Source: Eledone cirrhosa (lineage: Eukaryota). Taken from it: a DNA stretch of 64,000 bases. The DNA lies in assembly GCA_964016885.1 (NCBI GenBank), contig OZ024759.1, positions 2,418,001 to 2,482,000 on the forward strand, read 5' to 3'. Positions 3,001-34,100 of this stretch are shown here, piece by piece. Every line of letters begins with the position of its first letter. The first letter of the stretch is position 1. A program made the position numbers and the translations under genes. The notes under the pieces are model-generated. The model was not told where the DNA came from. It was given only the letters and a program-made list of their open reading frames with translations, and did not search any database.

Positions 3001-6000
3001 ACTCAGTCTATATTAATAACATGACAAAGTCTATATTAGTAGCATGACAAAGTCTATATTAGTAACATGACACAGTCTATATTAGTAGCATGACAAAGTC
3101 TATATTAGTAACATGACAAAGTCTATATTAGTAACATGACACAGTCTATATTAGTAACATGACAAAGTCTATATTAGTAACATGACAAAGTCTATATTAG
3201 TAACATGACACAGTCTATATAAGTAACATGACAAAGTCTATATTAGTAACATGACAAAGTCTATATTAGTAACATGACAGTCTATATTAGTAACATGACA
3301 CAGTCTATATTAGTAACATGACAAAGTCTATATTAGTAGCATGACACAGTCTATATTAGTAACATGACACAGTCTATATTAGTAACATGACACAGTCTAT
3401 ATTAGTAACATGACACAGTCTATATTAGTAACATGACACTGTCTATATTAGTAACATGACAAAGTCTATATTAGTAGCATGACACAGTCTATATTAGTAA
3501 CATGACACAGTCTATATTAGTAGCATGACAAAGTCTATATTAGTAACATGACACAGTCTATATTAGTAACATGACACAGTCTATATTAGTAACATGACAC
3601 AGTCTATATTAGTAACATGACAAAGTCTATATTAGTAACATGACAAAGTCTATATTAGTAACATGACAAAGTCTATATTAGTAACATGACACAGTCTATA
3701 TTAGTAACATGACACAGTCTATATTAGTAACATGACAAAGTCTATATTAGTAGCATGACAAATTCTATATTAGTAATATGACACAGTCTATATTAGTAGC
3801 ATGACAAAGTCTATATTAGTAACATGACAAAGTCTATATTAGTAACATGACAAAGTCTATATTAGTAACATGACACAGTCTATATTAGTAACATGACACA
3901 GTCTATATTAGTAACATGACAAAGTCTATATTAGTAGCATGACAAATTCTATATTAGTAATATGACACAGTCTATATTAGTAGCATGACAAAGTCTATAT
4001 TAGTAACATGACAAAGTCTATATTAGTAACATGACACAGTCTATATTAGTAACATGACAAAGTCTATATTAGTAACATGACAAAGTCTATATTAGTAACA
4101 TGACAAAGTCTATATTAGTAACATGACAGTCTATATTAGTAACATGACACAGTCTATATTAGTAACATGACAAAGTCTATATTAGTAGCATGACACAGTC
4201 TATATTAGTAACATGACACTGTCTATATTGGTAACATGACAAAGTCTATATTAGTAGCATGACACAGTCTATATTAGTAACATGACACAGTCTATATTAG
4301 TAACATGACACTGTCTATATTAGTAACATGACACAGTCTATATTAGTAACATGACAAAGTCTATATTAGTAACATGACAAAGTCTATATTAGTAACATGA
4401 CAAAGTCTATATTAGTAACATGACAAAGTCTATATTAGTAACATGACAAAGTCTATATTAGTAACATGACAAAGTCTATATTAGTAACATGACAAAGTCT
4501 ATATTAGTAACATGGCAAAGTCTATATTAGTAACATGACAAAGTCTATATTAGTAACATGACACAGTCTATATTAGTAGCATGACACAGTCTATATTAGT
4601 AACATGACACAGTCTATATTAGTAGCATGACAAAGTCTATATTAGTAACATGACAAAGTCTATATTAGTAACATGACACAGTCTATATTAGTAACATGAC
4701 AAAGTCTATATTAGTAACATGACAAAGTCTATATTAGTAACATGACACAGTCTATATTAGTAACATGACAAAGTCTATATTAGTAACATGACAAAGTCTA
4801 TATTAGTAACATGACAGTCTATATTAGTAACATGACACAGTCTATATTAGTAACATGACAAAGTCTATATTAGTAGCATGACACAGTCTATATTAGTAAC
4901 ATGACACAGTCTATATTAGTAACATGACACAGTCTATATTAGTAACATGACACAGTCTATATTAGTAACATGACACTGTCTATATTAGTAACATGACAAA
5001 GTCTATATTAGTAGCATGACACAGTCTATATTAGTAACATGACACAGTCTATATTAGTAGCATGACAAAGTCTATATTAGTAACATGACACAGTCTATAT
5101 TAGTAACATGACACAGTCTATATTAGTAACATGACACAGTCTATATTAGTAACATGACAAAGTCTATATTAGTAACATGACAAAGTCTATATTAGTAACA
5201 TGACAAAGTCTATATTAGTAACATGACACAGTCTATATTAGTAACATGACACAGTCTATATTAGTAACATGACAAAGTCTATATTAGTAGCATGACAAAG
5301 TCTATATTAGTAACATGACACAGTCTATATTAGTAGCATGACAAAGTCTATATTAGTAACATGACAAAGTCTATATTAGTAACATGACACAGTCTATATT
5401 AGTAACATGACAAAGTCTATATTAGTAACATGACAAAGTCTATATTAGTAACATGACACAGTCTATATTAGTAACATGACAAAGTCTATATTAGTAACAT
5501 GACAAAGTCTATATTAGTAACATGACAGTCTATATTAGTAACATGACACAGTCTATATTAGTAACATGACAAAGTCTATATTAGTAGCATGACACAGTCT
5601 ATATTAGTAACATGACACAGTCTATATTAGTAACATGACACAGTCTATATTAGTAACATGACACAGTCTATATTAGTAACATGACACTGTCTATATTGGT
5701 AACATGACAAAGTCTATATTAGTAGCATGACACAGTCTATATTAGTAACATGACACAGTCTATATTAGTAACATGACACTGTCTATATTAGTAACATGAC
5801 ACAGTCTATATTAGTAACATGACACAGTCTATATTAGTAACATGACAAAGTCTATATTAGTAACATGACAAAGTCTATATTAGTAACATGACAAAGTCTA
5901 TATTAGTAACATGACAAAGTCTATATTAGTAACATGACAAAGTCTATATTAGTAACATGACAAAGTCTATATTAGTAACATGACAAAGTCTATATTAGTA

Positions 6001-9000
6001 ACATGGCAAAGTCTATATTAGTAACATGACAAAGTCTATATTAGTAACATGACAAAGTCTATATTAGTAACATGACAAAGTCTATATTAGTAACATGACA
6101 AAGTCTATATTAGTAACATGACAAAGTCTATATTAGTAACATGACAGTCTATATTAGTAACATTACAAAGTCTATATTAGTAGCATGACAAAGTCTATAT
6201 TAGTAACATGACAAAGTCTATATTAGTAACATGACAAAGTCTATATTAGTAACATGACAAAGTCTATATTAGTAACATGACAAAGTCTATATTAGTAACA
6301 TGACAAAGTCTATATTAGTAACATGACACAGTCTATATTAGTAGCATGACAAAGTCTATATTAGTAACATGACACAGTCTATATTAGTAACATGACAAAG
6401 TCTATATTAGTAACATGACACAGTCTATATTAGTAACATGACACAGTCTATATTAGTAACATGACACAGTCTATATTAGTAACATGACACAGTCTATATT
6501 AGTAGCATGACAAAGTCTATATTAGTAACATGACACAGTCTATATTAGTAACATGACAAAGTCTATATTAGTAACATGACACAGTCTATATTAGTAACAT
6601 GACAAAGTCTATATTAGTAGCATGACAAAGTCTATATTAGTAGCATGACAAAGTCTATATTAGTAGCATGACAAAGTCTATATTAGTAACATGACAAAGT
6701 CTATATTAGTAACATGACAACGTCTATATTAGTAACATGACACAGTCTATATTAGTAACATGACACAGTCTATATTAGTAGCATGACAAAGTCTATATTA
6801 GTAACATGACACAGTCTATATTAGTAACATGACACAGTCTATATTAGTAACATGACACAGTCTATATTAATAGTATGGCAAAGTCTATATTAGTAACATG
6901 ACACAGTCTATATTAGTAACATGACAAAGTCTATATTAGTAACATGACACAGTCTATATTAGTAACATGACAAAGTCTATATTTGTAGCATGACAAAGTC
7001 TATATTAGTAGCATGACAAAGTCTATATTAGTAGCATGACAAAGTCTATATTAGTAACATGACAAAGTCTATATTAGTAACATGACAAAGTCTATATTAG
7101 TAACATGACACAGTCTATATTAGTAGCATGACACAGTCTATATTAGTAACATGACAAAGTCTATATTAGTAGCATGACAAAGTCTATATTAGTAACATGA
7201 CACAGTCTATATTAGTAACATGACAAAGTCTATATTAGTAACATGACAAAGTCTATATTAGTAACATGACACAGTCTATATTAGTAACATGACAATGTCT
7301 ATATTAGTAACATGACAAAGTCTATATTAGTAACATGACACAGTCTATATTAGTAACATGACACAGTCTATATTAGTAACATGACACAGTCTATATTAGT
7401 AACATGACACAGTCTATATTAGTAACATGACACAGTCTATATTTGTAACATGACAAAGTCTATATTAGTAACATGACAAAGTCTATATTAGTAACATGAC
7501 AAAGTCTATATTAGTAACATGACACAGTCTATATTAGTAACATGACACAGTCTATATTAGTAACATGACACAGTCTATATTAGTAACATGACACAGTCTA
7601 TATTAATAACATGACAAAGTCTATATTAGTAGCATGACAAAGTCTATATTAGTAGCATGACAAAGTCTATATTAGTAGCATGACAAAGTCTATATTAGTA
7701 ACATGACAAAGTCTATATTAGTAACATGACAAAGTCTATATTAGTAACATGACACAGTCTATATTAGTAGCATGACAAAGTCTATATTAGTAACATGACA
7801 CAGTCTATATTAGTAGCATGACAAAGTCTATATTAGTAACATGACACAGTCTATATTAGTAACATGACACAGTCTATATTAGTAACATGACAAAGTCTAT
7901 ATTAGTAACATGACAAAGTCTATATTAGTAACATGACAGTCTATATTAGTAACATGACACAGTCTATATTAGTAACATGACAAAGTCTATATTAGTAGCA
8001 TGACACAGTCTATATTAGTAACATGACACAGTCTATATTAGTAACATGACACAGTCTATATTAGTAACATGACACAGTCTATATTAGTAACATGACACTG
8101 TCTATATTAGTAACATGACAAAGTCTATATTAGTAGCATGACACAGTCTATATTAGTAACATGACACAGTCTATATTAGTAGCATGACAAAGTCTATATT
8201 AGTAACATGACACAGTCTATATTAGTAACATGACACAGTCTATATTAGTAACATGACACAGTCTATATTAGTAACATGACAAAGTCTATATTAGTAACAT
8301 GACAAAGTCTATATTAGTAACATGACAAAGTCTATATTAGTAACATGACACAGTCTATATTAGTAACATGACACAGTCTATATTAGTAACATGACAAAGT
8401 CTATATTAGTAGCATGACAAAGTCTATATTAGTAACATGACACAGTCTATATTAGTAGCATGACAAAGTCTATATTACTAACATGACACAGTCTATATTA
8501 ATAACATGACAAAGTCTATATTAGTAGCATGACAAAGTCTATATTAGTAACATGACACAGTCTATATTAGTAGCATGACAAAGTCTATATTAGTAACATG
8601 ACAAAGTCTATATTAGTAACATGACACAGTCTATATTAGTAACATGACAAAGTCTATATTAGTAACATGACAAAGTCTATATTAATAACATGACACAGTC
8701 TATATTAGTAACATGACAAAGTCTATATTAGTAACATGACAAAGTCTATATTAGTAACATGACAGTCTATATTAGTAACATGACACAGTCTATATTAGTA
8801 ACATGACAACGTCTATATTAGTAGCATGACACAGTCTATATTAGTAACATGACACAGTCTATATTAGTAACATGACACAGTCTATATTAGTAACATGACA
8901 CAGTCTATATTAGTAACATGACACTGTCTATATTAGTAACATGACAAAGTCTATATTAGTAGCATGACACAGTCTATATTAGTAACATGACACAGTCTAT

Positions 9001-9950
9001 ATTAGTAACATGACACTGTCTATATTAGTAACATGACACAGTCTATATTAGTAACATGACAAAGTCTATATTAGTAACATGACAAAGTCTATATTAGTAA
9101 CATGACAAAGTCTATATTAGTAACATGACAAAGTCTATATTAGTAGCATGACAAAGTCTATATTAGTAACATGACAAAGTCTATATTAGTAACATGACAA
9201 AGTCTATATTAGTAACATGACAAAGTCTATATTAGTAACATGACAATGTCTATATTAGTAACATGACAAAGTCTATATTAGTAACATGACAAAGTCTATA
9301 TTAGTAACATGACAAAGTCTATATTAGTAACATGACAAAGTCTATATTAGTAACATGACAAAGTCTATATTAGTAACATGACAAAGTCTATATTAGTAAC
9401 ATGATACAGTCTATATTAGTAACATGACACAGTCTATATTAGTAACATGATACAGTCTATATTAGTAACATGACACAGTCTATATTAGTAACATGACAGT
9501 CTATATTAGTAACATGACACAGTCTATATTAGTAACATGGCACTGTCTATATTAGTAGCATGACACAGTCTATATTAGTAACATGACAAAGTCTATATTA
9601 GTAACATGACACAGTCTATATTAGTAACATGACAAAGTCTATATTAGTAGCATGACACAGTCTATATTAGTAACATGACAAAGTCTATATTAGTAGCATG
9701 ACACAGTCTATATTAGTAACATGACAAAGTCTATATTAGTAACATGACACAGTCTATATTAGTAACATGACAAAGTCTATATTAGTAACATGACAAAGTC
9801 TATATTAGTAACATGACAAAGTCTATATTAGTAACATGACACAGTCTATATTAGTAACATGACAAAGTCTATATTAGTATCATGGCAAGATCTATATTTT
9901 TAGCATAACAAAGTCGGTATTAGTAACATGAGAAAGTCTATACTAGTAGG
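1..9950. repeat. 23-bp satellite array, consensus GTCTATATTAGTA(A/G)CATGACA(A/C)A, ~430 copies, truncated by window start, intronic
   Basis: GTCTA recurs at 20, 43, etc. (period 23); occasional 21-bp deletion monomers; last units (9880-9950) are degenerate. Confidence 0.98.
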
Positions 9951-12884: not shown

Positions 12885-13022
12885 GTTGCTGCACTACAGA
12901 AAAATATACCACCTCCCCGTGACTACCAACCTCCTCCTACACATGATGGACTGAACCAAGATTTAGCCAACCATCTGTCAAATGTCCTTCAGAGACTTAT
13001 ATTGGATGATAGTTGTCTTGAG
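12885..13022 (+). CDS. SPAG17: SPAG17/PF6-like internal exon A ([46 protein letters not shown]), phase 0/0
   Basis: ttattag acceptor, GAG|gtgagt donor, 138 nt open; resembles recalled vertebrate SPAG17 VVATEEDLVPP..DGLDHRIAAH segment. Confidence 0.85.
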
Positions 13023-15450: not shown

Positions 15451-15920
15451 TTAACCTCTTCAGTGCCACAGATGAGATAACTGATCCTAACATGTTTGAA
15501 CTCGTTTCCAACAGTTTATAACTTCAAAGTTATGAACTTGTTTCCAACAGTTTATAACTTCAAAGTTATGAACTTGTTTCCAACAGTTTATAACTTCAAA
15601 GTTATGAACTTGTTTCCAACAGTTCATAACTTCAAAGCTAGATGGAGTTACTAGTTTATTAATGTGATGTTTGTCAATCATTCAGATATGTGTTGTTAAT
15701 AAATGTTTGTTTTAAAAAATAGTCATTTTACTGAAAAAAAGTCCAGCACAGCAACTGTAGCTCTGTAAAGTATATATGGCAGTCAACAGGTTAAACAACA
15801 ACTTACCTGCCTTCCAAATGCCAATTTATCAAAACTGTCACTGCTGCTTGTGTTGGTGATGAAAAATCCCAGCACAGCAACTGTAGCTGTGTAAAATATA
15901 TGTAGCAGTCAACAGGTTAA
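15451..15920. mobile_element. TTAA-flanked MITE with duplicated right end
   Basis: Left TTAACCTCTTCAGTGCCA; right TGGCAGTCAACAGGTTAA (to 15794) and a second ~52-bp right-end copy ending 15920. Confidence 0.6.
15497..15637. repeat. 36-bp minisatellite (TGAACTTGTTTCCAACAGTTTATAACTTCAAAGTTA) x~4 inside the MITE
   Basis: Direct inspection; 12-aa period in ORF 15487-15681. Confidence 0.92.
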
Positions 15921-16545: not shown

Positions 16546-16840
16546 ATCCATTCAACCAACCATCCATCCATTCATTCATCCATCCATCCAACCATCCAAC
16601 AACCCTCCACCCACCATCCAACCAACCACCACCCACAACCCACCATCCAACCACCCACCACCCACCAGCCAACCAACCACCACCCACAACCCACCATCCA
16701 ACCACCCATCACCCACCATCCAACCACCTACCATCCACCAGCCACCCACCAGCCAACCAACCACCACCCAACCACCCACCATCCAACCCATCACCCACCA
16801 CCAACCAGCACCCGCCACCCACCACCCACCACCACCCATC
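16546..16840. repeat. C/A-rich low-complexity repeat (CCAT/CCAA/CCAC)n
   Basis: Direct inspection; ends ~25 nt before the exon D acceptor. Confidence 0.92.
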
Positions 16841-16975: not shown

Positions 16976-17039
16976 GTAGGTTCACTTCCTATCTACTTAC
17001 TCCTCATCAGGTAGGCCACACCCACCCATTGGTCCATCT

Positions 17040-17720
17040 CGCCCACCCTCACTAGTTTATCACCCCCACCCTCACTGGTCTATCTCCCCCACCTCACTGG
17101 TCTATCTCCCCCAGCCTCACTAGTTTATCACCCCCACCCCACTAGTCTATCTCCCCCACCCGCACTAGTCTATCCCCCCACCCTCACTAGTCTATCCCCC
17201 CACCCTCACTAGTCTACCCCCCACCCTCACTGGTCTATCTCCCCCACCCCATGGTCTGTCCCCCACCCTCACTAGTCTATCTCCCCACCCTCACTGGTCT
17301 ATCTCCCCCATCCCACTGGTCTATCCCCCCACTCTCACTAGTCTATCCCCCCACCCTCACTGGTCTATCTCCCCCACCCCATCGTCTAACCCCCCACCCT
17401 CACTAGTCTACCCCCACCCTCACTGGTCTATCTCCCCCACCCCATGGTCTACCCCCCACCCTCACTAGTCTATCCCCCCACCCTCACTGGTCTATCTCCC
17501 CCATCCCACTGGTCTATCCCCCCACTCTCACTAGTCTATCCCCCACCCTCACTGGTCTATCTCCCCCACCCCATGGTCTGTCCCCCACCCTCACTAGTCT
17601 ATCCCCCACCCTTACTGGTCTATCTCCCCCACCCCACAGGTCTATCCCCCCACCCTCACTGGTCTATCTCCCCCATCCCACTGGTCTATCTCCCCCATAT
17701 ATCTATCTCCCTCACCCCAC
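17040..17720. repeat. ~21-23-bp C-rich minisatellite (CCCCCACCCTCACT(A/G)GTCTAT(CT)C) filling most of intron D-E
   Basis: About 30 variable units visible. Confidence 0.93.
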
Positions 17721-17756: not shown

Positions 17757-17917
17757 ATGAGAAACAGGCAGTGTCAGAGGGCGTCACTACCAACTGTAAA
17801 GGAATAGAGATAGAACAGAAATGTGAAGAGTTAATTACAAAACTTGCTGATTGCAGGTACAGTTGTTTGAAGAACTGGAATTGCATAGAACACCTGACAA
17901 AGAAAGATTTTCAGCAG
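17757..17917 (+). CDS. SPAG17: SPAG17-like exon E (DEKQAVSEG..RYSCLKNWNCIEHLTKKDFQQ), phase 1/0
   Basis: cttcag acceptor, CAG|gtaaaa donor, 161 nt; matches recalled RSLMDWSFTEHFKPKVLLQ. Confidence 0.83.
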
Positions 17918-17941
17918 GTAAAAAACACTTTGTTGATGGCT

Positions 17942-20620
17942 GGTTGCAGATCTTGGTGGTAACACATATTCAAATGAGACTGAAACCTTCGAAGACCAGT
18001 GGTCAAACTCGGGTCAGTCAGTCTTAAGAAGGGTTCGGTGCCAACGCTGGTCAAGCATGGGTCAGTCAGTCTTAAGAAGGGTTCGGTGCCACCGCTGGTC
18101 AAACATGGGTCAGTCAGTCTTAAGAAGGGTTCGGTGCCAACGCTGGTCAAGCATGGGTCAGTCGGTCTTAAGAAGGGTTCGGTGCCACCGCTGCTCAAGC
18201 ATGGGTCAGTCAGTCTTAAGAAGGGTTCGGTGCCAACGCCGGTCAAACACGGGTCAGCCAGTCTTAAGAAGGGTTCAGTGCCAATGCTGGTCAAACACGG
18301 GTCAGTCAGTCTTAAGAAGGGTTCAGTGCCAACGCCGGTCAAACACGGGTCAGTCAGTCTTAAGAAGGGTTCAGTGCCAATGCTGGTCAAGCACGGGTCA
18401 GTCGGTCTTAAGAAGGGTTCGGTGCCAATGCTGGTCAAGCACGGGTCAGTCAGTCTTAAGAAGGGTTCAGTGCCAACGCTGGTCAAGCACGGGTCAGTCA
18501 GTCTTAAGGGTTCGGTGCCAACGCTGGTCAAGCATGGGCCAGTCAGTCTTAAGAAGGGTTCAGTGCCAATGCTGGTCAAGCACGGGTCAACCAGTCTTAA
18601 GAAGGGTTCGGTGCCAACGCTGGTCAAGCACGGGTCAGTCAGTCTTAAGGGTTCGGTGCCAACGCTGGTCAAGCATGGGTCAGTCAGTCTTAAGAAGGGT
18701 TCAGTGCCAATGCTGGTCAAGCACGGGTCAGTCGGTCTTAAGAAGGGTTCGGTGCCAATGCTGGTCAAACACGGGTCAGTCAGTCTTAAGAAGGGTTCGG
18801 TGCCAATGCTGGTCAAACACGGGCCAGTCAGTCTTAAGAAGGGTTCGGTGCCAATGCTGGTCAAACACGGGTCAGTCGGTCTTAAGAAGGGTTCTGTGCC
18901 AATGCTGGTCAAGCAAGGGCAGTCAGTCTTAAGAATGGTTTGGTGCCAACGCTGGTCAAACACGGGTCAGTTGGGTTTAAGGGTTCAGTGCCAATGCTGG
19001 TCAAGCACGGGTCAGTCGGTCTTAAGAAGGGTTCGGTGCCAATGCTGGTCAAACACGGGTCAGTCAGTCTTAAGAAGGGTTCAATGCCAATGCTGGTCAA
19101 GCACGGGTCAGTCAGTCTTAAGAAGGGTTCGGTGCCAACGCCGGTCAAACACGGGTCAGTCAGTCTTAAGAAGGGTTCAGTGCCAATGCTGGTCAAACAC
19201 GGGTCAGTCAGTCTTAAGAAGGGTTCAGTGCCAACGCCGGTCAAACACGGGTCAGTCAGTCTTAAGAAGGGTTCAGTGCCAATGCTGGTCAAGCACGGGT
19301 CAGTCGGTCTTAAAAAGGGTTCGGTGCCAATGCTGGTCAAACACGGGTCAGTCAGTCTTAAGAAGGGTTCAGTGCCAACGCTGGTCAAGCACGGGTCAGT
19401 CAGTCTTAAGGGTTCGGTGCCAACGCTGGTCAAGCATGGGTCAGTCAGTCTTAAGAAGGGTTCAGTGCCAATGCTGGTCAAGCACGGGTCAACCAGTCTT
19501 AAGAAGGGTTCGGTGCCAACGCTGGTCAAGCACGGGTCAGTCAGTCTTAAGGGTTCGGTGCCAACGCTGGTCAAGCATGGGTCAGTCAGTCTTAAGAAGG
19601 GTTCAGTGCCAATGCTGGTCAAGCACGGGTCAGTCAGTCTTAAGAAGGGTTCGGTGCCAATGCTGGTCAAACACGGGTCAGTCAGTCTTAAGAAGGGTTC
19701 GGTGCCAATGCTGGTCAAACACGGGTCAGTCGGTCTTAAGAAGGGTTCGGTGCCAATGCTGGTCAAGCAGGGGCAGTCAGTCTTAAGAAGGGTTTGGTGC
19801 CAACGCTGGTCAAACACGGGTCAGTTGGGTTTAAGAAGGGTTCAGTGCCAATGCTGGTCAAACAGGGTCAGTCGGTCTTAAGAAGGGTTCAGTGCCAATG
19901 CTGGTCAAACACGGGTCAGTCAGTCTTAAGAAGGGTTCAGTGCCAACACTGGTCAAACACGGGTCAGTCAGTCTTAAGAAGGGTTCAGTGCCAATGCTGG
20001 TCAAGCACGGGTCAGTCAGTCTTAAGAAGGGTTCAGTGCCAACGCTGGTCAAGCACGGGTCAGTCAGTCTTAAGGCTTCGGTGCCAACGCTGGTCAAGCA
20101 TGGGTCAGTCAGTCTTAAGAAGGGTTCAGTGCCAATGCTGGTCAAGCACGGGTCAGTCGGTCTTAAGAAGCGGGTGAAAGCTTTGTTGTGTATGTCGTTG
20201 TCAAAGCCGGCAGTCAGGCAAAGCAATGACACAACAAGGGAGCCTGGAGACGTTGCTGGGAGCCCTGGTAAGTGTTCTCTCTTCTTTGTAAAGGACCGCG
20301 TCTGTGGAATAGGCTTGTCCAGAGATACGGATAAGGTACCTGTAGAGCACGACATCTCGGGCAGCATCCGGTGCGTTCTCGGCGGCCCTGAAAATCTGGG
20401 TCTATAATGATTCGCAGCTTTTGAATTGGTCTGTAGCCTCTTGTCGATAACATCAATGTATGTAAGGGAAGTCGGCAAAATGGATCCATACCTTCAGAAG
20501 AAGGATTGGCACTGAAGACCGGGACGGTTGGACTGTGTGTGTCGTTGTCGTCAGCTAACCTTTTCTCAGGGCTGTTGGTAGTGTGGCACGACAGTATGTG
20601 AAGTGGTGAACTGGTACGGG
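17942..20620 (+). pseudogene. Diverged 28S (LSU) rRNA gene fragment (D7-D8 region) interrupted by an internal tandem amplification
   Basis: TGCAGATCTTGGTGGTA..ATATTCAAATGAGA (17945-17979); after the array GGAGACG..GGGAGCCCTGG..GTTCTCTCTTCTTTGT, CCGGTGCG..GGCCCTGAAAATC, CAATGTATGTAAGGGAAGTCGGCAAAATGGATCC..AAGGATTGGC (~20454-20510), GAACTGGTACGG (~20608): conserved LSU motifs in the correct order. Confidence 0.88.
17997..20168. repeat. 48-bp minisatellite (AAGGGTTCRGTGCCAAYGCTGGTCAARCAYGGGTCAGTCRGTCTTAAG), ~45 copies, derived from 28S rRNA
   Basis: 16-aa period in ORF track; 45- and 47-bp variants; gapless alignment to LSU AAGGGTTCCATGTGAACAGCAGTTGAACATGGGTCAGTCGGTCCT(A/G)AG. Confidence 0.95.
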
Positions 20621-20811
20621 GCTGTAGCATTAACGTCTGAGGGGCAGTCGGGAGATTGGTTGGCGTTCATTTGTTTCATTTTCTTTCACCTCTTTCAGTG
20701 GATGGTGGAGGGTTCATTGCTGTCTTCTTTTGATGAGAAGGGGTCAAAGTTCTTTTGTTACACATTTTTCTCTGACATTAGACACACACTAGTGATCAAA
20801 GATAGAATATG

Positions 20812-21108
20812 AATTAAGTCATCCAAATTTAAGTCATCCAGATTTAAGCCATCCAGATTTAAGCCATCCAAATTTAAGTCATCCAAATTTAAGCCATCCA
20901 GATTTAAGCCATCCAAATTTAAGTCATCTAGATTTAAGCCATCCAGATTTAAGCCATCCAGATTTAAGCCATCCAAATTTAAGTCATCCAGATTTAAGCC
21001 ATCCAGATTTAAGCCATCCAAATTTAAGTCATCCAGATTTAAGCCATCCAGATTTAAGCCATCCAAATTTAAACCATCCAAATTTAAACCATCCATATTT
21101 AAGCCATC
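20812..21108. repeat. 15-bp minisatellite (TTTAAG(C/T)CATCCA(G/A)A) x~20
   Basis: Direct inspection; ends ~18 nt before the exon F acceptor. Confidence 0.96.
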
Positions 21109-21126
21109 TGTATGTTTTCCTTTCAG

Positions 21127-21281
21127 GTGCTATTTGAGGCTATATATTACCAACCTCACTTTATACAGTATCACCACGTTAGAGATGACAGTTTATATTT
21201 AGTATTGGACAACCCCTACAATAGATATTTGTTCAACAAACAGACCTGGAACATCCAGTTACATTCCAATGTTGGATTTAG
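21127..21281 (+). CDS. SPAG17: SPAG17-like exon F (VLFEAIYYQPHFIQYHHVRDDSLYLVLDNPYNRYLFNKQTWNIQLHSNVGFR), phase 0/2
   Basis: ttttcctttcag acceptor, AG|gtgggt donor; WNIQLHSNVGFR and DDSLYLVLDNP match recalled SPAG17 WNIALHSNVGFR and DNSLLLVFHNP. Confidence 0.92.
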
Positions 21282-21758: not shown

Positions 21759-21964
21759 GAATTTCATGTTACATGTAGCTGAGAAAATCAATGACTGGTC
21801 CCAGGCAACAGACAAAAAAGAATTGGAGCAGCTAAGAGAAGACAAAGCTCTGAGGATATGGGAACAACAGTTAATTGCAAGTGAATTTTTAAAGGTTGAT
21901 CGAAATGAAAGAAAAATTATGATAGAAGAGGGTAAAAGAGCAATGAAGAAGAAAGAAATGTCGC
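21759..21964 (+). CDS. SPAG17: SPAG17-like exon G (RNFMLHVAEKINDWSQATDKKELEQLRE..KKKEMS), phase 2/1
   Basis: Long pyrimidine tract + acag acceptor, C|gtaagt donor, 206 nt; NFMLHVAEKINDW matches recalled NYLELVAKSIQDW. Confidence 0.9.
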
Positions 21965-22118: not shown

Positions 22119-25100
22119 ATGTTTCTACCTCCTCACTATTAGAGGTAACAAAGAGGTTAAAGTTCTGTTTCACCCTCCTCACTAGTTGAGGTAACAAAGA
22201 GGTTAAAGTTCTGTTTCACCCATGTTTCTACCTCCTCACTAGTTGAGGTAACAAAGAGGTTAGAGTTCTGTTTCACCCATGTTTCTCCCACCTTACTAGT
22301 TGAGGTAACAAAGAGGTTAAAGTTCTGTTTCACCCATGTTTCTCCCTCCTCACTAGTTGAGGTAACAAAGAGGTTAAAGTTCTGTTTCACCCATGTTTCT
22401 ACCTCCTCACTATTTGAGGTAACAAAGTGGTTAAAGTACTGTTTCACCCATGTTTCTCCCTCCTTACTAGTTGAGGTAACAAAGAGGTTAAAGTTCTGTT
22501 TCACCCATGTTTCTACCTCCTCACTATTTGAGGTAACAAAGAGGTTAAAGTTCTGTTTGCCCCATGTTTCTACCTCCTCATAGTTGAGGTAACAAAGAGG
22601 TTAAAGTTCTGTTTCACCCATGTTTCTACCTCCTCACTTGTTGAGGTAAAAAAGAGGTTAAAGTTCTGTTTCACCCATGTTTCTACCTCCTCACTATTTG
22701 AGGTAACAAAGAGGTTAAAGTTCTGTTTCACCCATGTTTCTACCTCCTCAGTAGTTGAGGTAACAAAGAGGTTAAAGTTCTGTTTCACCCATGTTTCTCC
22801 CTCCTCACTATTAGAGGTAACAAAGAGGTTAAAGTTCTGTTTCACCCATGTTTCTCCCTCCTCACTAGTTTAGGTAACAAAGAGGTTAAAGTTCTGTTTC
22901 ACCGATGTTTCTGCCTCCTCACTAGTTGAGATTACAAAGAGATTAAAGTTCTGTTTCACCCATGTTTCTCCCTCCTCACTAGTTGATGTAACAAAGAGGT
23001 TAAAGTTCTGTTTCACCGATGTTTCTGCCTCCTCACTAGTTGAGATTACAAAGAGGTTAAAGTTCTCTTTCACCCATTTTTCTCCCTCCTCACTAGTTGA
23101 GGTAACAAAGAGGTTAAAGTTCTGTTTCACCCATGTTTCTCCCTCCTCACTAGTTGAGGTAACAAAGATGTTAAAGTTCTGTTTCACCCATGTTTCTACC
23201 TCCTCACTAGTTGAGGTAACAAAGAGGTTAAAGTTCTGTTTCACCCATGTTTCTCCCTACTCAGTAGTTGAGGTAACAAAGAGGTTAAAGTTCTGTTTCA
23301 TCCATGTTTCTACCTCCTCACTAGTTGAGGTAACAAAGAGGTTAAAGTTCTGTTTCCGCCATGTTTCTCCCTCCTCACTGTTGAGGTAACAAAGAGGTTA
23401 GTGTTCTGTTTCACCCATGTTTCTACCTCCTCACTATTTGAGGTAACAAAGAGGTTAAAGTTCTGTTTCACCCATGTTTCTCCCTCCTCACTAGTTGAGG
23501 TAACAAAGAGGTTAGAGTTCTGTTTCACCCATGTTTCTCCCTCCTCACTAGTTGAGGTAACAAAGAGGTTAATGTTCTGTTTCACCCATGTTTCTCCCTC
23601 CTCACTAGTTGAGGTAACAAAGAGGTTAAAGTTCTGTTTCACCCATGTTTCTACCTCCACACTATTTGAGGTAACAAAGAGGTTAAAGTTCTGTTTCCCC
23701 ATGTTTCTACCTCCTCACTAGTTGAGGTAACAAAGAGGTTAAAGTTCTGTTTCCCCCATGTTTCTACCTCCTCATAGTTGAGGTAACAAAGAGGTTAAAG
23801 TTCTGTTTCACCCATTTTTCTACCTCCTCACTATTTGAGGTAACAAAGAGGTTAAAGTTCTGTTTCACCCATGTTTCTACCTCCTCAGTAGTTGAGGTAA
23901 CAAAGAGGTTAGAGTTCTGTTTCACCCATTATTCTACCTCCTCACTATTTGAGGTAACAAAGAGGTTAAAGTTCTATTTCACCCATGTTTCTCCCGCCTC
24001 ACTAGTTGAGGTAACAAAGACGTTAAAGTTCTGTTTCACCCATGTTTCTCCCTCCTCACTATTTGAGGTAACAAAGAGGTTAAAGTTCTGTTTCACCCAT
24101 GTTTCTCCCTCCTCACTAGTTGAGGTAACAAAGAGGTTAAAGTTCTGTTTCACCCATGTTTCTCCCTACTCAGTTGTTGATGTAACAAAGAGGTTAAAGT
24201 TCTGTTTCATCCATGTTTCTACCTCCTCACTAGTTGAGGTAACAAAGAGGTTAGTGTTCTGTTTCACCCATGTTTCTACCTCCTCACTATTTGAGGTAAC
24301 AAAGAGGTTAAAGTTCTGTTTCACCCATGTTTCTCCCTCCTCACTAGTTGAGGTAACAAAGAGGTTAAAGTTCTGTTTCACCCATGTTTCTCCCCACTCA
24401 CTAGTTGAGGTAACAAAGGGGTTAAAGTTCTGTTTCACCCATGTTCCCCCTCCTCACTAGTTGAGGTAACAAAGAGGTTAAAGTTCTGTTTCACCCATGT
24501 TTCTCCCCCCTCACTAGTTGAGGTAACAAAGAGGTTAAAGTTCTGTTTCACCCATGTTTCTCCCTCCTCACTATTGAGGTAACAAAGAGGTTAGAGTTCT
24601 GTTTCACCCATGTTTCTCCCTCCTCAGTAGTTGAGGTAACAAAGAGGTTAAAGTTCTGTTTCCCCCATGTTTCTACGTCCTCACTAGTTGAGGTAACAAA
24701 GAGGTTAAAGTTCTGTTTCCCCCATGGTTCTACCTCCTCATAAATGAGGTAACAAAGAGGTTAAAGTTCTGTTTCACCCATGTTTCTCCCTCCTCACTAG
24801 TTGAGGTAACAAAGAGGTTAAAGTTCTGTTTCACCCATGATCTCCCTCCTCACTATTTGAGGTAACAAAGAGGTTAAAGTTCTGTTTCACCCATGTTTCT
24901 CCCTCCTCACTATTAGAGGTAACAAAGAGGGTAAAGTTCTGTTTCACTCATGATTCTACCTCCTCACTAGTTGAGGTAACAAAGAGGTTAAAGTTCTATT
25001 TCACCCATGTTTCTCCCTCCTCACTAGTTGAGGTAACGAAGAGGTTAAAGTTCTGTTTCACCCATGTTTTTCCGTCCTCACTAGTTGAGGTAACAAAGAG

Positions 25101-28100
25101 GTTAAAGTTCTGTTTCACCCATGTTTCTCCCTCCTCATTAGTTGAGGTAACAAAGAGGTTAAAATTCTGTTTCACCCATGTTTATCCCTCCTTACTAGTT
25201 GAGGTAACAAAGAGGTTTAAGTTCTGTTTCACCCATGTTTCTTCCCCCTCACTAGTTGAGGTAACAAAGGGGTTAAAGTTATGTTTCACGCATGTTGCCC
25301 CTCCTAACTAGTTGAGGTAACAAAGAGGTTAAAGTTCTGTTTCACCCATGTATCTCCCCCCTCACTAGTTGAGGTAATAAAGGGGTTAAAGTTCTGTTTC
25401 ACCCATGTTCCCCCTCCTCACTAGTTGAGGTAACAAAGAGGTTAAAGTTCTGTTTCACACATGTTTCTCCCTCCTCACTAGTTGAGGTAACAAAGAGGTT
25501 AAAGTTCTGTTTCACCCATGTTTCTCCCTCCTCACTATTGAGGTAACAAAGAGGTTAGAGTTCTGTTTCACCCATGTTTCTCCCTCCTCAGTAGTTGAGG
25601 TAACAAAGAGGTTAAAGTTCTGTTTCCCACATGTTTCTACGTCCTCACTAGTTGAGGTAACAAAGAGGTTAAAGTTCTATTTCCCCCATGTTTCTACCTC
25701 CTCATAGTTGAGGTAACAAAGAGGTTAAAGTTCTGTTTCACCCATGTTTCTCCCTCCTCACTAGTTAAGTTAACAAAGAGGGTAAAGTTCTGTTTCACCC
25801 ATGTTTCTCCCTCCTCACTAGTTGAGGTAACAAAGAGGTTAAAGTTCTATTTCACCCATGTTTCTCCCTCATCACTAGTTGAGGTAACAAAGAGGTTAAG
25901 GTACTGTTTCACCCATGTTTCTCCCTCCTCACTATTTGAGGTAACAAAGACGTTAAAGTTCTGTTTCACCCATGTTTCTCCCTCCTCACTATTAGAGGTA
26001 ACAAAGAGGGTAAAGTTCTGTTTCACCCATGATTCTACTTCCTCACTAGTTGAGGTAACAAAGAGGTTAAAGTTCTATTTCACCCATGTTTCTCCCTCCC
26101 TCACTAGTTGAAGTAACAAAGAGGTTAAAGTTCTGTTTCACCCATGTTTCTCCCTCCTCACTAGTTGAAGTAACAAAGAGGTTAAAGTTCTGTTTCACCC
26201 ATGTATCTCCCCCCCTCACTAGTTGAGGTAACAAAGGGGTTAAAGTTCTGTTTCACCCATGTTTCTAAATCTCCTCACTAGTTGAGGTAACAAAGAGGTT
26301 AAATATCTGTTTCACCCATGTTTCTCCCTCCTCACTATTGAGGTAACAAAGAGGTTAGAGTTCTGTTTCATGCATGTTTCTCCCTCCTCAGTAGTTGAGG
26401 TAACAAAGAGGTTAAAGTTCTGTTTCCCCCATGTTTCTACCTCCTCACTAGTTGAGGTAACAAAGAGGTTAAAGTTCTGTTTCCCCCATGTTTCTAAATC
26501 TCCTCACTAGTTGAGGTAACAAAGAGGTTAAAGTTCTGTTTCACCCATGTTTCTAAATCTCCTCACTAGTTGAGGTAACAAAGAGGTTAAATATCTGTTT
26601 CACCCATGTTTCTCCCTCCTCACTATTGAGGTAACAAAGAGGTTAGAGTTCTGTTTCATGCATGTTTCTCCCTCCTCACTAGTTGAGGTAACAAAGAGGT
26701 TAAAGTTCTGTTTCCCCCATGTTTCTACCTCCTCACTAGTTGAGGTAACAAAGAGGTTAAAGTTCTGTTTCACCCATGTTTCTACCTCTTCACTATTTGA
26801 GGTAACAAAGAGGTTAAAGTTCTGTTTCCCCATGTTTCTACCTCCTCACTAGTTGAGGTAACAAAGAGGTTAAAGTTCTGTTTCCCCCATGTTTCTACCT
26901 CCTCATAGTTGAGGTAACAAAGAGGTTAAAGTTCTGTTGCACCCATGTTTCTACCTCCTCACTATTTGAGGTAACAAAGAGGTTAAAGTTCTGTTTCACC
27001 CATGTTTCTACCTCCTCAGTAGTTGAGGTAACAAAGAGGTTAGAGTTCTGTTTCACCCATTATTCTACCTCCTCACTATTTGAGGTAACAAAGAGGTTAA
27101 AGTTCTATTTCACCCATGTTTCTCCCGCCTCACTAGTTGAGGTAACAAAGACGTTAAAGTTCTGTTTCACCCATGTTTCTACCTCCTCACTAGTTGAGGT
27201 AACAAAGAGGTTAAAGTTCTGTTTCACCCATGTTTCTCCCTACTCAGTTGTTGATGTAACAAAGAGGTTAAAGTTCTGTTTGCCCCATGTTTCTACCTCC
27301 TCATAGTTGAGGTAACAAAGAGGTTAAAGTTCTGTTTCACCCATGTTTCTACCTCCTCACTTGTTGAGGTAAAAAAGAGGTTAAAGTTCTGTTTCACCCA
27401 TGTTTCTACCTCCTCACTATTTGAGGTAACAAAGAGGTTAAAGTTCTGTTTCACCCATGTTTCTACCTCCTCAGTAGTTGAGGTAACAAAGAGGTTAAAG
27501 TTCTGTTTCACCCATGTTTCTCCCTCCTCACTATTAGAGGTAACAAAGAGGTTAAAGTTCTGTTTCACCCATGTTTCTCCCTCCTCACTAGTTTAGGTAA
27601 CAAAGAGGTTAAAGTTCTGTTTCACCGATGTTTCTGCCTCCTCACTAGTTGAGATTACAAAGAGATTAAAGTTCTGTTTCACCCATGTTTCTCCCTCCTC
27701 ACTAGTTGATGTAACAAAGAGGTTAAAGTTCTGTTTCACCGATGTTTCTGCCTCCTCACTAGTTGAGATTACAAAGAGGTTAAAGTTCTCTTTCACCCAT
27801 TTTTCTCCCTCCTCACTAGTTGAGGTAACAAAGAGGTTAAAGTTCTGTTTCACCCATGTTTCTCCCTCCTCACTAGTTGAGGTAACAAAGATGTTAAAGT
27901 TCTGTTTCACCCATGTTTCTACCTCCTCACTAGTTGAGGTAACAAAGAGGTTAAAGTTCTGTTTCACCCATGTTTCTCCCTACTCAGTAGTTGAGGTAAC
28001 AAAGAGGTTAAAGTTCTGTTTCATCCATGTTTCTACCTCCTCACTAGTTGAGGTAACAAAGAGGTTAAAGTTCTGTTTCCGCCATGTTTCTCCCTCCTCA

Positions 28101-31100
28101 CTGTTGAGGTAACAAAGAGGTTAGTGTTCTGTTTCACCCATGTTTCTACCTCCTCACTATTTGAGGTAACAAAGAGGTTAAAGTTCTGTTTCACCCATGT
28201 TTCTCCCTCCTCACTAGTTGAGGTAACAAAGAGGTTAGAGTTCTGTTTCACCCATGTTTCTCCCTCCTCACTAGTTGAGGTAACAAAGAGGTTAATGTTC
28301 TGTTTCACCCATGTTTCTCCCTCCTCACTAGTTGAGGTAACAAAGAGGTTAAAGTTCTGTTTCACCCATGTTTCTACCTCCACACTATTTGAGGTAACAA
28401 AGAGGTTAAAGTTCTGTTTCCCCATGTTTCTACCTCCTCACTAGTTGAGGTAACAAAGAGGTTAAAGTTCTGTTTCCCCCATGTTTCTACCTCCTCATAG
28501 TTGAGGTAACAAAGAGGTTAAAGTTCTGTTTCACCCATTTTTCTACCTCCTCACTATTTGAGGTAACAAAGAGGTTAAAGTTCTGTTTCACCCATGTTTC
28601 TACCTCCTCAGTAGTTGAGGTAACAAAGAGGTTAGAGTTCTGTTTCACCCATTATTCTACCTCCTCACTATTTGAGGTAACAAAGAGGTTAAAGTTCTAT
28701 TTCACCCATGTTTCTCCCGCCTCACTAGTTGAGGTAACAAAGACGTTAAAGTTCTGTTTCACCCATGTTTCTCCCTCCTCACTATTTGAGGTAACAAAGA
28801 GGTTAAAGTTCTGTTTCACCCATGTTTCTCCCTCCTCACTAGTTGAGGTAACAAAGAGGTTAAAGTTCTGTTTCACCCATGTTTCTCCCTACTCAGTTGT
28901 TGATGTAACAAAGAGGTTAAAGTTCTGTTTCATCCATGTTTCTACCTCCTCACTAGTTGAGGTAACAAAGAGGTTAGTGTTCTGTTTCACCCATGTTTCT
29001 ACCTCCTCACTATTTGAGGTAACAAAGAGGTTAAAGTTCTGTTTCACCCATGTTTCTCCCTCCTCACTAGTTGAGGTAACAAAGAGGTTAAAGTTCTGTT
29101 TCACCCATGTTTCTCCCCACTCACTAGTTGAGGTAACAAAGGGGTTAAAGTTCTGTTTCACCCATGTTCCCCCTCCTCACTAGTTGAGGTAACAAAGAGG
29201 TTAAAGTTCTGTTTCACCCATGTTTCTCCCCCCTCACTAGTTGAGGTAACAAAGAGGTTAAAGTTCTGTTTCACCCATGTTTCTCCCTCCTCACTATTGA
29301 GGTAACAAAGAGGTTAGAGTTCTGTTTCACCCATGTTTCTCCCTCCTCAGTAGTTGAGGTAACAAAGAGGTTAAAGTTCTGTTTCCCCCATGTTTCTACG
29401 TCCTCACTAGTTGAGGTAACAAAGAGGTTAAAGTTCTGTTTCCCCCATGGTTCTACCTCCTCATAAATGAGGTAACAAAGAGGTTAAAGTTCTGTTTCAC
29501 CCATGTTTCTCCCTCCTCACTAGTTGAGGTAACAAAGAGGTTAAAGTTCTGTTTCACCCATGATCTCCCTCCTCACTATTTGAGGTAACAAAGAGGTTAA
29601 AGTTCTGTTTCACCCATGTTTCTCCCTCCTCACTATTAGAGGTAACAAAGAGGGTAAAGTTCTGTTTCACTCATGATTCTACCTCCTCACTAGTTGAGGT
29701 AACAAAGAGGTTAAAGTTCTATTTCACCCATGTTTCTCCCTCCTCACTAGTTGAGGTAACGAAGAGGTTAAAGTTCTGTTTCACCCATGTTTTTCCCTCC
29801 TCACTAGTTGAGGTAACAAAGAGGTTAAAGTTCTGTTTCACCCATGTTTCTCCCTCCTCATTAGTTGAGGTAACAAAGAGGTTAAAATTCTGTTTCACCC
29901 ATGTTTATCCCTCCTTACTAGTTGAGGTAACAAAGAGGTTTAAGTTCTGTTTCACCCATGTTTCTTCCCCCTCACTAGTTGAGGTAACAAAGGGGTTAAA
30001 GTTATGTTTCACGCATGTTGCCCCTCCTAACTAGTTGAGGTAACAAAGAGGTTAAAGTTCTGTTTCACCCATGTATCTCCCCCCTCACTAGTTGAGGTAA
30101 TAAAGGGGTTAAAGTTCTGTTTCACCCATGTTCCCCCTCCTCACTAGTTGAGGTAACAAAGAGGTTAAAGTTCTGTTTCACCCATGTTTCTCCCTCCTCA
30201 CTAGTTGAGGTAACAAAGAGGTTAAAGTTCTGTTTCACCCATGTTTCTCCCTCCTCACTATTGAGGTAACAAAGAGGTTAGAGTTCTGTTTCACCCATGT
30301 TTCTCCCTCCTTACTATTGAGGTAACAAAGAGGTTAAAGTTCTGTTTCACCCATGTTTCTCCCTCCTCACTATTGAGGTAACAAAGAGGTTAAAGTTCTG
30401 TTTCACCCATGTTTCTCCCTCCTCGCTAGTTGAGGTAACAAAGAGGTTAAAGTTCTGTTTCCCACATGTTTCTACGTCCTCACTAGTTGAGGTAACAAAG
30501 AGGTTAAAGTTCTATTTCCCCCATGTTTCTACCTCCTCATAGTTGAGGTAACAAAGAGGTTAAAGTTCTGTTTCACCCATGTTTCTCCCTCCTCACTAGT
30601 TAAGTTAACAAAGAGGGTAAAGTTCTGTTTCACCCATGTTTCTCCCTCCTCACTAGTTGAGGTAACAAAGAGGTTAAAGTTCTATTTCACCCATGTTTCT
30701 CCCTCATCACTAGTTGAGGTAACAAAGAGGTTAAGGTACTGTTTCACCCATGTTTCTCCCTCCTCACTATTTGAGGTAACAAAGACGTTAAAGTTCTGTT
30801 TCACCCATGTTTCTCCCTCCTCACTATTAGAGGTAACAAAGAGGGTAAAGTTCTGTTTCACCCATGATTCTACTTCCTCACTAGTTGAGGTAACAAAGAG
30901 GTTAAAGTTCTATTTCACCCATGTTTCTCCCTCCCTCACTAGTTGAAGTAACAAAGAGGTTAAAGTTCTGTTTCACCCATGTTTCTCCCTCCTCACTAGT
31001 TGAAGTAACAAAGAGGTTAAAGTTCTGTTTCACCCATGTATCTCCCCCCCTCACTAGTTGAGGTAACAAAGGGGTTAAAGTTCTGTTTCACCCATGTTTC

Positions 31101-34100
31101 TAAATCTCCTCACTAGTTGAGGTAACAAAGAGGTTAAATATCTGTTTCACCCATGTTTCTCCCTCCTCACTATTGAGGTAACAAAGAGGTTAGAGTTCTG
31201 TTTCATGCATGTTTCTCCCTCCTCAGTAGTTGAGGTAACAAAGAGGTTAAAGTTCTGTTTCCCCCATGTTTCTACCTCCTCACTAGTTGAGGTAACAAAG
31301 AGGTTAAAGTTCTGTTTCCCCCATGTTTCTAAATCTCCTCACTAGTTGAGGTAACAAAGAGGTTAAAGTTCTGTTTCACCCATGTTTCTAAATCTCCTCA
31401 CTAGTTGAGGTAACAAAGAGGTTAAATATCTGTTTCACCCATGTTTCTCCCTCCTCACTATTGAGGTAACAAAGAGGTTAGAGTTCTGTTTCATGCATGT
31501 TTCTCCCTCCTCACTAGTTGAGGTAACAAAGAGGTTAAAGTTCTGTTTCCCCCATGTTTCTACCTCCTCACTAGTTGAGGTAACAAAGAGGTTAAAGTTC
31601 TGTTTCACCCATGTTTCTACCTCTTCACTATTTGAGGTAACAAAGAGGTTAAAGTTCTGTTTCCCCATGTTTCTACCTCCTCACTAGTTGAGGTAACAAA
31701 GAGGTTAAAGTTCTGTTTCCCCCATGTTTCTACCTCCTCATAGTTGAGGTAACAAAGAGGTTAAAGTTCTGTTGCACCCATGTTTCTACCTCCTCACTAT
31801 TTGAGGTAACAAAGAGGTTAAAGTTCTGTTTCACCCATGTTTCTACCTCCTCAGTAGTTGAGGTAACAAAGAGGTTAGAGTTCTGTTTCACCCATTATTC
31901 TACCTCCTCACTATTTGAGGTAACAAAGAGGTTAAAGTTCTATTTCACCCATGTTTCTCCCGCCTCACTAGTTGAGGTAACAAAGACGTTAAAGTTCTGT
32001 TTCACCCATGTTTCTACCTCCTCACTAGTTGAGGTAACAAAGAGGTTAAAGTTCTGTTTCACCCATGTTTCTCCCTACTCAGTTGTTGATGTAACAAAGA
32101 GGTTAAAGTTCTGTTTCATCCATGTTTCTACCTCCTCACTAGTTGAGGTAACAAAGAGGTTAAAGTTCTGTTTCCGCCATGTTTTTCCCTCCTCACTAGT
32201 TGAGGTAACAAAGAGGTTAAAGTTCTGTTTCACCCATGTTTCTCCCTCCTCATTAGTTGAGGTAACAAAGAGGTTAAAATTCTGTTTCACCCATGTTTAT
32301 CCCTCCTTACTAGTTGAGGTAACAAAGAGGTTTAAGTTCTGTTTCACCCATGTTTCTTCCCCCTCACTAGTTGAGGTAACAAAGGGGTTAAAGTTATGTT
32401 TCACGCATGTTGCCCCTCCTCACTAGTTGAGGTAACAAAGAGGTTAAAGTTCTGTTTCACCCATGTTTCTCCCTCCTCACTATTGAGGTAACAAAGAGGT
32501 TAGAGTTCTGTTTCACCCATGTTTCTCCCTCCTCAGTAGTTGAGGTAACAAAGAGGTTAAAGTTCTGTTTCCCACATGTTTCTACGTCCTCACTAGTTGA
32601 GGTAACAAAGAGGTTAAAGTTCTATTTCCCCCATGTTTCTACCTCCTCATAGTTGAGGTAACAAAGAGGTTAAAGTTCTGTTTCACCCATGTTTCTCCCT
32701 CCTCACTAGTTAAGTTAACAAAGAGGGTAAAGTTCTGTTTCACCCATGTTTCTCCCTCCTCACTATTTGAGGTAACAAAGACGTTAAAGTTCTGTTTCAC
32801 CCATGTTTCTCCCTCCTCACTATTAGAGGTAACAAAGAGGGTAAAGTTCTGTTTCACCCATGATTCTACTTCCTCACTAGTTGAGGTAACAAAGAGGTTA
32901 AAGTTCTATTTCACCCATGTTTCTCCCTCCCTCACTAGTTGAAGTAACAAAGAGGTTAAAGTTCTGTTTCACCCATGTTTCTCCCTCCTCACTAGTTGAA
33001 GTAACAAAGAGGTTAAAGTTCTGTTTCACCCATGTATCTCCCCCCCTCACTAGTTGAGGTAACAAAGGGGTTAAAGTTCTGTTTCACCCATGTTTCTAAA
33101 TCTCCTCACTAGTTGAGTTAACAAAGAGGTTAAATATCTGTTTCACCCATGTTTCTCCCTCCTCACTATTGAGGTAACAAAGAGGTTAGAGTTCTGTTTC
33201 ATGCATGTTTCTCCCTCCTCAGTAGTTGAGGTAACAAAGAGGTTAAAGTTCTGTTTCCCCCATGTTTCTACCTCCTCACTAGTTGAGGTAACAAAGAGGT
33301 TAAAGTTCTGTTTCCCCCATGTTTCTAAATCTCCTCACTAGTTGAGGTAACAAAGAGGTTAAAGTTCTGTTTCACCCATGTTTCTAAATCTCCTCACTAG
33401 TTGAGGTAACAAAGAGGTTAAATATCTGTTTCACCCATGTTTCTCCCTCCTCACTATTGAGGTAACAAAGAGGTTAGAGTTCTGTTTCATGCATGTTTCT
33501 CCCTCCTCACTAGTTGAGGTAACAAAGAGGTTAAAGTTCTGTTTCCCCCATGTTTCTACCTCCTCACTAGTTGAGGTAACAAAGAGGTTAAAGTTCTGTT
33601 TCACCCATGTTTCTACCTCTTCACTATTTGAGGTAACAAAGAGGTTAAAGTTCTGTTTCCCCATGTTTCTACCTCCTCACTAGTTGAGGTAACAAAGAGG
33701 TTAAAGTTCTGTTTCCCCCATGTTTCTACCTCCTCATAGTTGAGGTAACAAAGAGGTTAAAGTTCTGTTTCACCCATGTTTCTACCTCCTCACTATTTGA
33801 GGTAACAAAGAGGTTAAAGTTCTGTTTCACCCATGTTTCTACCTCCTCAGTAGTTGAGGTAACAAAGAGGTTAGAGTTCTGTTTCACCCATTATTCTACC
33901 TCCTCACTATTTGAGGTAACAAAGAGGTTAAAGTTCTATTTCACCCATGTTTCTCCCGCCTCACTAGTTGAGGTAACAAAGACGTTAAAGTTCTGTTTCA
34001 CCCATGTTTCTACCTCCTCACTAGTTGAGGTAACAAAGAGGTTAAAGTTCTGTTTCACCCATGTTTCTCCCTACTCAGTTGTTGATGTAACAAAGAGGTT

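Follow-up and report, generated by a model that had tools for sequence, protein, structure and literature searches.

A 48-bp minisatellite derived from a 28S rRNA gene fragment, probably born in place, in an intron of the octopod sperm-tail gene SPAG17

The SPAG17 gene and its satellite-filled introns

The window, that is, the whole 64,000-nt stretch of DNA analysed here, corresponds to positions 2,418,001–2,482,000 of contig C20 in an octopod genome of 3.0 Gb. Seven exons located in the window splice in frame into a 405-aa sequence without a stop, and this chain is 49.6% identical to the SPAG17 proteins of Octopus vulgaris and O. sinensis, so that the source is likely an octopod distinct from these two. 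Two of these exons, both on the forward strand, border the intron of interest. The upstream one (17757..17917, in frame with the six others) matched residues 660–697 of Octopus SPAG17 in tblastn; the downstream one (21127..21281) is 70% identical to the Octopus protein and matched the SPAG17 of PDB entry 9ijj in phmmer (E = 8.5e-6). By homology, the host is the octopod gene for the sperm-tail protein SPAG17. A Pfam scan of the seven exons gave no informative family, a word-based homologue search with one exon gave no homologue, PDB searches with two other exons returned nothing relevant, and one match (P0002) was informative among the five obtained in a profile-free library search. The intron enclosed by the two exons (17918..21126, forward strand, 3,209 nt, GT..AG and phase-consistent, with its donor GT at 17918) contains a fragment of 28S rDNA, the 48-bp array carried by that fragment and a separate 15-bp array.

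Between C20:111,745 and C20:2,993,776, the SPAG17 exons succeed one another as they do in the protein, so that the gene spans approximately 2.9 Mb near the start of the contig. The intron ahead of window position 12885 is 2,285,260 nt long (C20:145,625–2,430,884), with matching splice phase and a protein that continues across it. It is filled with a 23-bp satellite, the right end of which occupies positions 1..9948 of the window (forward strand). All of the 22 three-kb samples taken between 160 kb and 2.30 Mb, as well as 90 kb read continuously, consisted of this one satellite and contained no N; this intron was sampled rather than read whole, and its length depends on the assembly. By length, the array would comprise approximately 99,000 copies. 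A 23-mer word of the satellite matched the genome 33,119 times in the forward and 592 times in the reverse orientation, against about 30,600 matches expected. The listed reverse matches fall in a small second array on the minus strand, from C1:437,826,325 onward, which holds up to 592 exact matches and is either genuine or a fragment put in the wrong place.

The intron after position 21964 consists of approximately 244.5 kb of a 57-bp satellite (about 4,300 copies), whose left part lies at 22166..64000 of the window (forward strand) and which continues to C20:2,684,482. Every 57-mer contains a pyrimidine tract and TAG, with a GT 5 nt further on, and the end of the final copy is the real splice acceptor of the next exon. 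A 37-nt word of this unit matched 1529 times, on one strand throughout, where some 1315 matches would be expected if this array were their sole source. From these counts we infer that the 23- and 57-bp satellites are near locus-specific, with places known for the first 100 matches listed for each.

Smaller arrays are also present in this gene. Samples of other SPAG17 introns, at 2.80, 2.83, 2.89, 2.92 and 0.115 Mb of C20, contained unrelated arrays with units of 48, 35, 29, 31 and 15 bp, respectively, and 22-, 15-, 36- and 4–7-bp arrays were located in neighbouring introns at 17030..17697, 20814..21108, 15497..15637 and 16546..16838; three of these last four end approximately 20–60 nt from a splice acceptor. 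The stretch that separates the 23-bp array from the next exon (approximately 9950–12570, forward strand) resembles by eye what we take to be a decayed LINE retroelement. SPAG17 is thus an axonemal gene with megabase-scale, satellite-filled giant introns, and a hotspot for such array growth, its other introns carrying unrelated, near locus-specific arrays.

The 28S rDNA fragment and its 48-bp array

A cmscan search detected a eukaryotic LSU rRNA match at 20124..20416 on the forward strand (79 bits, E = 8e-17, model positions 1506–1846), which takes in the last repeat unit and the right flank of the array. For alignment, a near-intact 28S copy from the same genome, designated L002 (LSU score of 1129 bits), served as the yardstick in place of the ancestral 28S. 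Homology to it begins 24 nt past the donor at 17918, close to the distance of about 25 nt given by the first-pass annotation. The left flank (17942..18002, forward strand, aligned to L002 1175–1234) ends in TGG and differs from L002 by 6 substitutions at 55 aligned sites. The right flank (20171..20700, forward strand, from cmscan and alignments) corresponds to L002 1288 to approximately 2080, and its right end is uncertain past approximately 20640, where the homology is weak when taken alone (local score of 28, reached by 2 of 200 shuffles). Its long block is 81.5% identical to L002 over ungapped columns, and the flank lacks 180–195 nt or so (L002 approximately 1301–1495) as well as about 31 nt near 20432. 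Used as a query against the genome, the right flank recovered its own locus plus 33 further matches, L002 among them, of which the best was at 74%; no further 28S match was found in the 224 kb around the locus.

On this sequence comparison, the interval from 17942 to approximately 20700 was confirmed as a decayed piece, about 900 nt long, of the octopod's own 28S rDNA within the SPAG17 intron, some 18% diverged from real rDNA. Its collinear homology to the 28S gene outside an rDNA unit, together with the unconstrained decay and the loss of conserved base pairs described below, is what is expected of an rRNA pseudogene. The fragment lies in sense relative to SPAG17; judged from position and strand, the 28S piece and its array would be transcribed solely within the SPAG17 pre-mRNA and removed by splicing.

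The array itself was delimited by TRF at 18000–20170 (45.7 copies). It comprises 45 full units (18032..20170, forward strand) of 27 types, 36 of them 48 nt, six 45 nt and three 47 nt long, for which the seed is L002 1240–1287; a partial first unit of 29 nt (18003..18031, forward strand, unit columns 20–48) precedes them, in agreement with the approximately 45-fold amplification proposed earlier. The 24 nt ahead of this partial unit were likely deleted between two TGG, and each of the six 45-nt units has one AAG missing. The array also carries a higher-order duplication (18224..19695, forward strand), in which units 5–16 (18224–18793) recur as units 24–35 (19126–19695) at a lag of 19 units, with 5 differences over the 12 unit pairs; a lag distance as low was reached in 36 of 5000 permutations. 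Being head-to-tail, built of units of tens of bp, a few kb long and confined to one locus, the array is a minisatellite; a satellite DNA family would have long or multiple arrays, and here there is one array of 2.2 kb.

The first-pass annotation had described the monomer and both flanks as collinear with LSU rRNA, and both cmscan and the alignment to the genome's own 28S bore this out. The alignment had been called gapless, which stands in so far as 36 of the 45 units match the seed without insertions, but not for the fragment as a whole, with its three missing stretches. Likewise, seed, flanks and product are all present as stated, but not intact, deletions having affected the first copy and the right flank.

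In the 28S gene, the seed is bounded by the pentanucleotide AGAAG, located at L002 1235 and 1283, i.e., exactly 48 nt apart. A junction repeat of at least 5 nt occurs at this spacing at 32 of 3039 28S positions, and over spacings of 20–100 nt in 2449 of 245187 cases, or about 1%, a figure that describes a single observation judged post hoc. The unit is therefore bounded in its parent by a short direct repeat of the 5–10-bp class considered by Haber and Louis. The earlier proposal that microhomology bounds the segment was right as to a short repeat, but the repeat is AGAAG; AAG was ruled out as the founding microhomology, and its loss accounts for the 45-nt units only. Hairpin-driven slippage was likewise rejected, the seed folding no better than its shuffles (z of 0.82 and −0.67). 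As a DNA hairpin the seed is thus of ordinary stability, which does not account for the choice of this 48-nt segment over others.

The pattern of decay is dominated by CpG sites. Of the 109 CpG sites in the better-aligned flanks, 38 had changed (34 of them by deamination), compared with 22 of 306 other sites, and GC>AT changes numbered 50 against 4 AT>GC changes; the poorly aligned last segment, with 20/52 CpG and 20/109 other sites changed, was omitted from these totals. The units showed the same level, with means of 4.5 of 12 CpG and 2.9 of 36 other sites changed. Units and flanks are equally decayed and therefore share one insertion age. Among the 17 dispersed 28S loci with enough overlap for this comparison, two alone exceed the fragment in CpG decay.

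Four columns differ from the 28S sequence in all 45 units, and the units are on average 15.5% distant from the seed (approximately 7.4 differences per unit) and 7.3% distant from one another. In the simplest reading, the seed had been decaying for about half of its existence when the common ancestor of the present units arose, a loose estimate that rests on four events; four fixed changes could also result if the array was homogenised at a later time. The deletion of the first copy's 5′ end has removed one dating anchor. Moreover, none of the 45 units retains all six pairs of the rRNA helix formed by the seed, and no compensatory change is present. Thus, as judged from these sequences, there is nothing in support of a function for the rRNA-sense transcript.

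Origin of the array and alternative explanations

The array appears at a single place in the genome. A 24-nt pattern spanning the unit junction had 30 exact genome matches, all 30 inside the array, with none on the other strand and none for the control. A DNA search with three units gave 19 matches in the array and 23 single-copy matches elsewhere; these DNA searches score the best candidates only, and 20 dispersed loci were fetched out of the 34 and 42 matches listed. TRF found no 48-nt period in any of 27 other rDNA-containing loci (7 near-intact and 20 dispersed). The seed could be read in 13 rDNA loci and was present in one copy in every case, and a fourteenth, L015, was missed by the motif and has no 48-nt period. 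Neither a widespread satellite nor a repeated birth in other 28S fragments was therefore seen by the junction pattern, the DNA search or TRF. Genome-wide search of the monomer had been suggested beforehand, and neither of the outcomes named as contrary, lack of collinearity with LSU rRNA or a widespread satellite without rDNA flanks, occurred.

Elsewhere in the genome, near-intact 28S copies are found on at least seven large contigs (C1, C2, C3, C4, C6, C12 and C25), together with many short fragments. Three dispersed 28S fragments of about 100 nt (L002 approximately 1208–1324) end near the hidden-break region and are possibly retrocopies that derive from the first half of the 28S, at its 3′ end; this sample is biased, since the fragments were found with the monomer as query.

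Taken together, the collinearity of seed, flanks and product, the unique junction and the equal decay argue for the birth in place that had been proposed for this array: very probably, a piece of 28S rDNA came to lie in the SPAG17 intron and one 48-nt segment of it was repeated 45 times there, likely by slippage between the AGAAG repeats and likely as a neutral process. Neutrality of the array is the most likely condition, as suggested by its decay. In this scheme, the fragment would have been inserted most simply as DNA or as unprocessed pre-rRNA, because both sides of the hidden break are in order and there is no tail and no clear target duplication. The inserted fragment would then have decayed, chiefly by CpG deamination, before the two AGAAG gave rise to a dimer through slippage or unequal exchange. 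The same two processes may have continued until 45 units were present, with the duplication of one 19-unit block on the way and with AAG and TGG, other short repeats, as sites of small deletions.

As to the mode of insertion, the 28S fragment has no 3′ A-tail, and the longest words common to its two ends are 6 nt, about one of which is expected by chance. Single-copy and without an A-tail or a clear target duplication, it does not resemble a 28S-derived SINE or a processed retrocopy. The seed starts at the first hidden-break marker of 28S, and the large deletion takes out the second. An RNA-templated insertion that switched across the hidden break was considered, since this deletion and the interval separating the two marker 20-mers (given in the available part of PMC6925239) overlap. 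It was set aside as less simple than a later deletion, the second marker and about 60 nt of conserved sequence beyond it also being gone. The placement of the hidden break allows an RNA intermediate without requiring one.

The decay of the seed also bears on whether the duplication, or even the whole array, arose in a variant rDNA unit and entered the intron ready-made. rDNA undergoes slippage and unequal exchange, the genome's own 28S copies contain small tandem duplications elsewhere (periods of 15–19), and a first dimer formed in the donor would give the same junction; however, no such dimer is present at the seed of the rDNA loci read, L015 included as regards periodicity, the unit junction is absent elsewhere in the genome, and the four helix-breaking changes fixed in all units fit decay before the units' common ancestor. 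An origin inside rDNA is accordingly unlikely. Still more improbable is a selected RNA element, such as an rRNA-like decoy, a small-RNA source or a protein-binding scaffold, acting in testis pre-mRNA. The helix broken in every unit and units that decayed as fast as the flanks speak against selection, a sense transcript is unable to pair with rRNA, and the DNA fold of two units gave z values of −1.6 and −0.9; on the other side stand the sense orientation inside an intron of a sperm-tail gene and the account in PMC6508621 of Drosophila fertility genes with satellite introns that undergo transcription and to which dedicated proteins bind.

It is hardly credible that the locus is an assembly artefact, whether through the joining of rDNA reads to the gene or through false expansion of a repeat. 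The divergence of the fragment from real rDNA and the 27 unit types with their ordered higher-order structure are not what such errors would give, and short-read contigs of run X1 span 20141–20810 (the last unit, the flank and unique intron sequence) with 0 differences and connect the left flank to the first units. The region is, however, repeat-rich, and run X1 may come from the assembly's own sample, so that it argues against mis-assembly without representing an independent animal; contig depth at the locus gives no copy number. RAD-seq runs X4–X6, from other samples, were without coverage of the locus, the reads at 20779–20809 being from another place. Birth of the array in place within the inserted 28S fragment is the reading retained below.

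Relation to known systems

Minisatellite birth has been described as the duplication of a motif flanked by a 5–10-bp direct repeat, followed by amplification through slippage, conversion or unequal crossing-over (Haber and Louis 1998, as cited in the available text of PMC6947457), and the same source reports this route for Alu- and LTR-derived minisatellites. The SPAG17 array would have followed the same route, the substrate here being a 28S core segment. Fixed and variable changes are separable in it because the ancestral 28S sequence is known base by base. Tandem repeats have usually lost their parent sequence, but the parent of this one survives in the genome as a slowly evolving gene. The junction repeat can therefore be read off directly, as can the block duplication and the changes that preceded and followed amplification. 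The array cleanly illustrates a mechanism that had already been described and does not represent a new one.

Other tandem repeats have been seeded by ribosomal DNA, including IGS-derived families (described in part of PMC5615363) and the 5S rDNA-derived PcP190 of frogs and PLsatB of Plantago (excerpts of PMC11202950). Unlike those satellite families of spacer or 5S origin, the present array is built from conserved 28S core, measures 2.2 kb at one locus and has both parental flanks attached. Dispersed rRNA pseudogenes (PMC5381670, in part), which are degraded 28S pieces off the rDNA arrays, are many in this genome, and none of the 20 others fetched contains a 48-nt array. SINE28 elements have also been described (portions of PMC10946416; see also PMC4994717); the SPAG17 fragment, with no tail, no clear target duplication and no dispersed family, is not SINE-like. 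Among the literature matches listed, with subscription papers outside the scope, there was no report of an in-place 28S-core minisatellite and none of giant satellite introns in cephalopods.

Large-subunit rRNA sequence would also be the source of the tandem repeat 'rally' of Drosophila hydei, which is transcribed in a fertility gene with mega-introns that forms a lampbrush loop on the Y; the available part of PMC9031259 does not name this repeat. 'rally' has a longer unit and much larger arrays than the 28S array and lies on the Y chromosome; if this account is right, 'rally' is the nearest precedent and lowers the novelty of the octopod array.

Drosophila kl-3 and kl-5 are sperm genes with megabase introns of satellite DNA, and satellite-filled giant introns of this kind were called obscure in function in the available part of PMC6508621. 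By analogy, SPAG17, with satellite introns of 2.285 Mb and 244 kb known here from genomic sequence, resembles the intron gigantism of the Drosophila Y loops; unlike kl-3 and kl-5, it is an octopod gene, its units are of 23 to 57 bp, and the satellite differs from intron to intron. It is tentatively proposed, as a possibility falling somewhat short of an even chance, that octopods independently evolved satellite giant introns of the Drosophila style, with the satellites born in place, out of whatever sequence each intron happened to contain, and not imported from heterochromatin. If so, the 28S array, at 45 copies, would represent an early stage of the process behind the 57- and 23-bp arrays and the only case in which the seed has an external reference for comparison, and the 57-bp array would have been built on the intron's own splice acceptor. 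SPAG17 can thus be placed beside the Drosophila genes as a non-insect giant-intron gene whose introns each hold their own near locus-specific satellite, one of them with a known seed.
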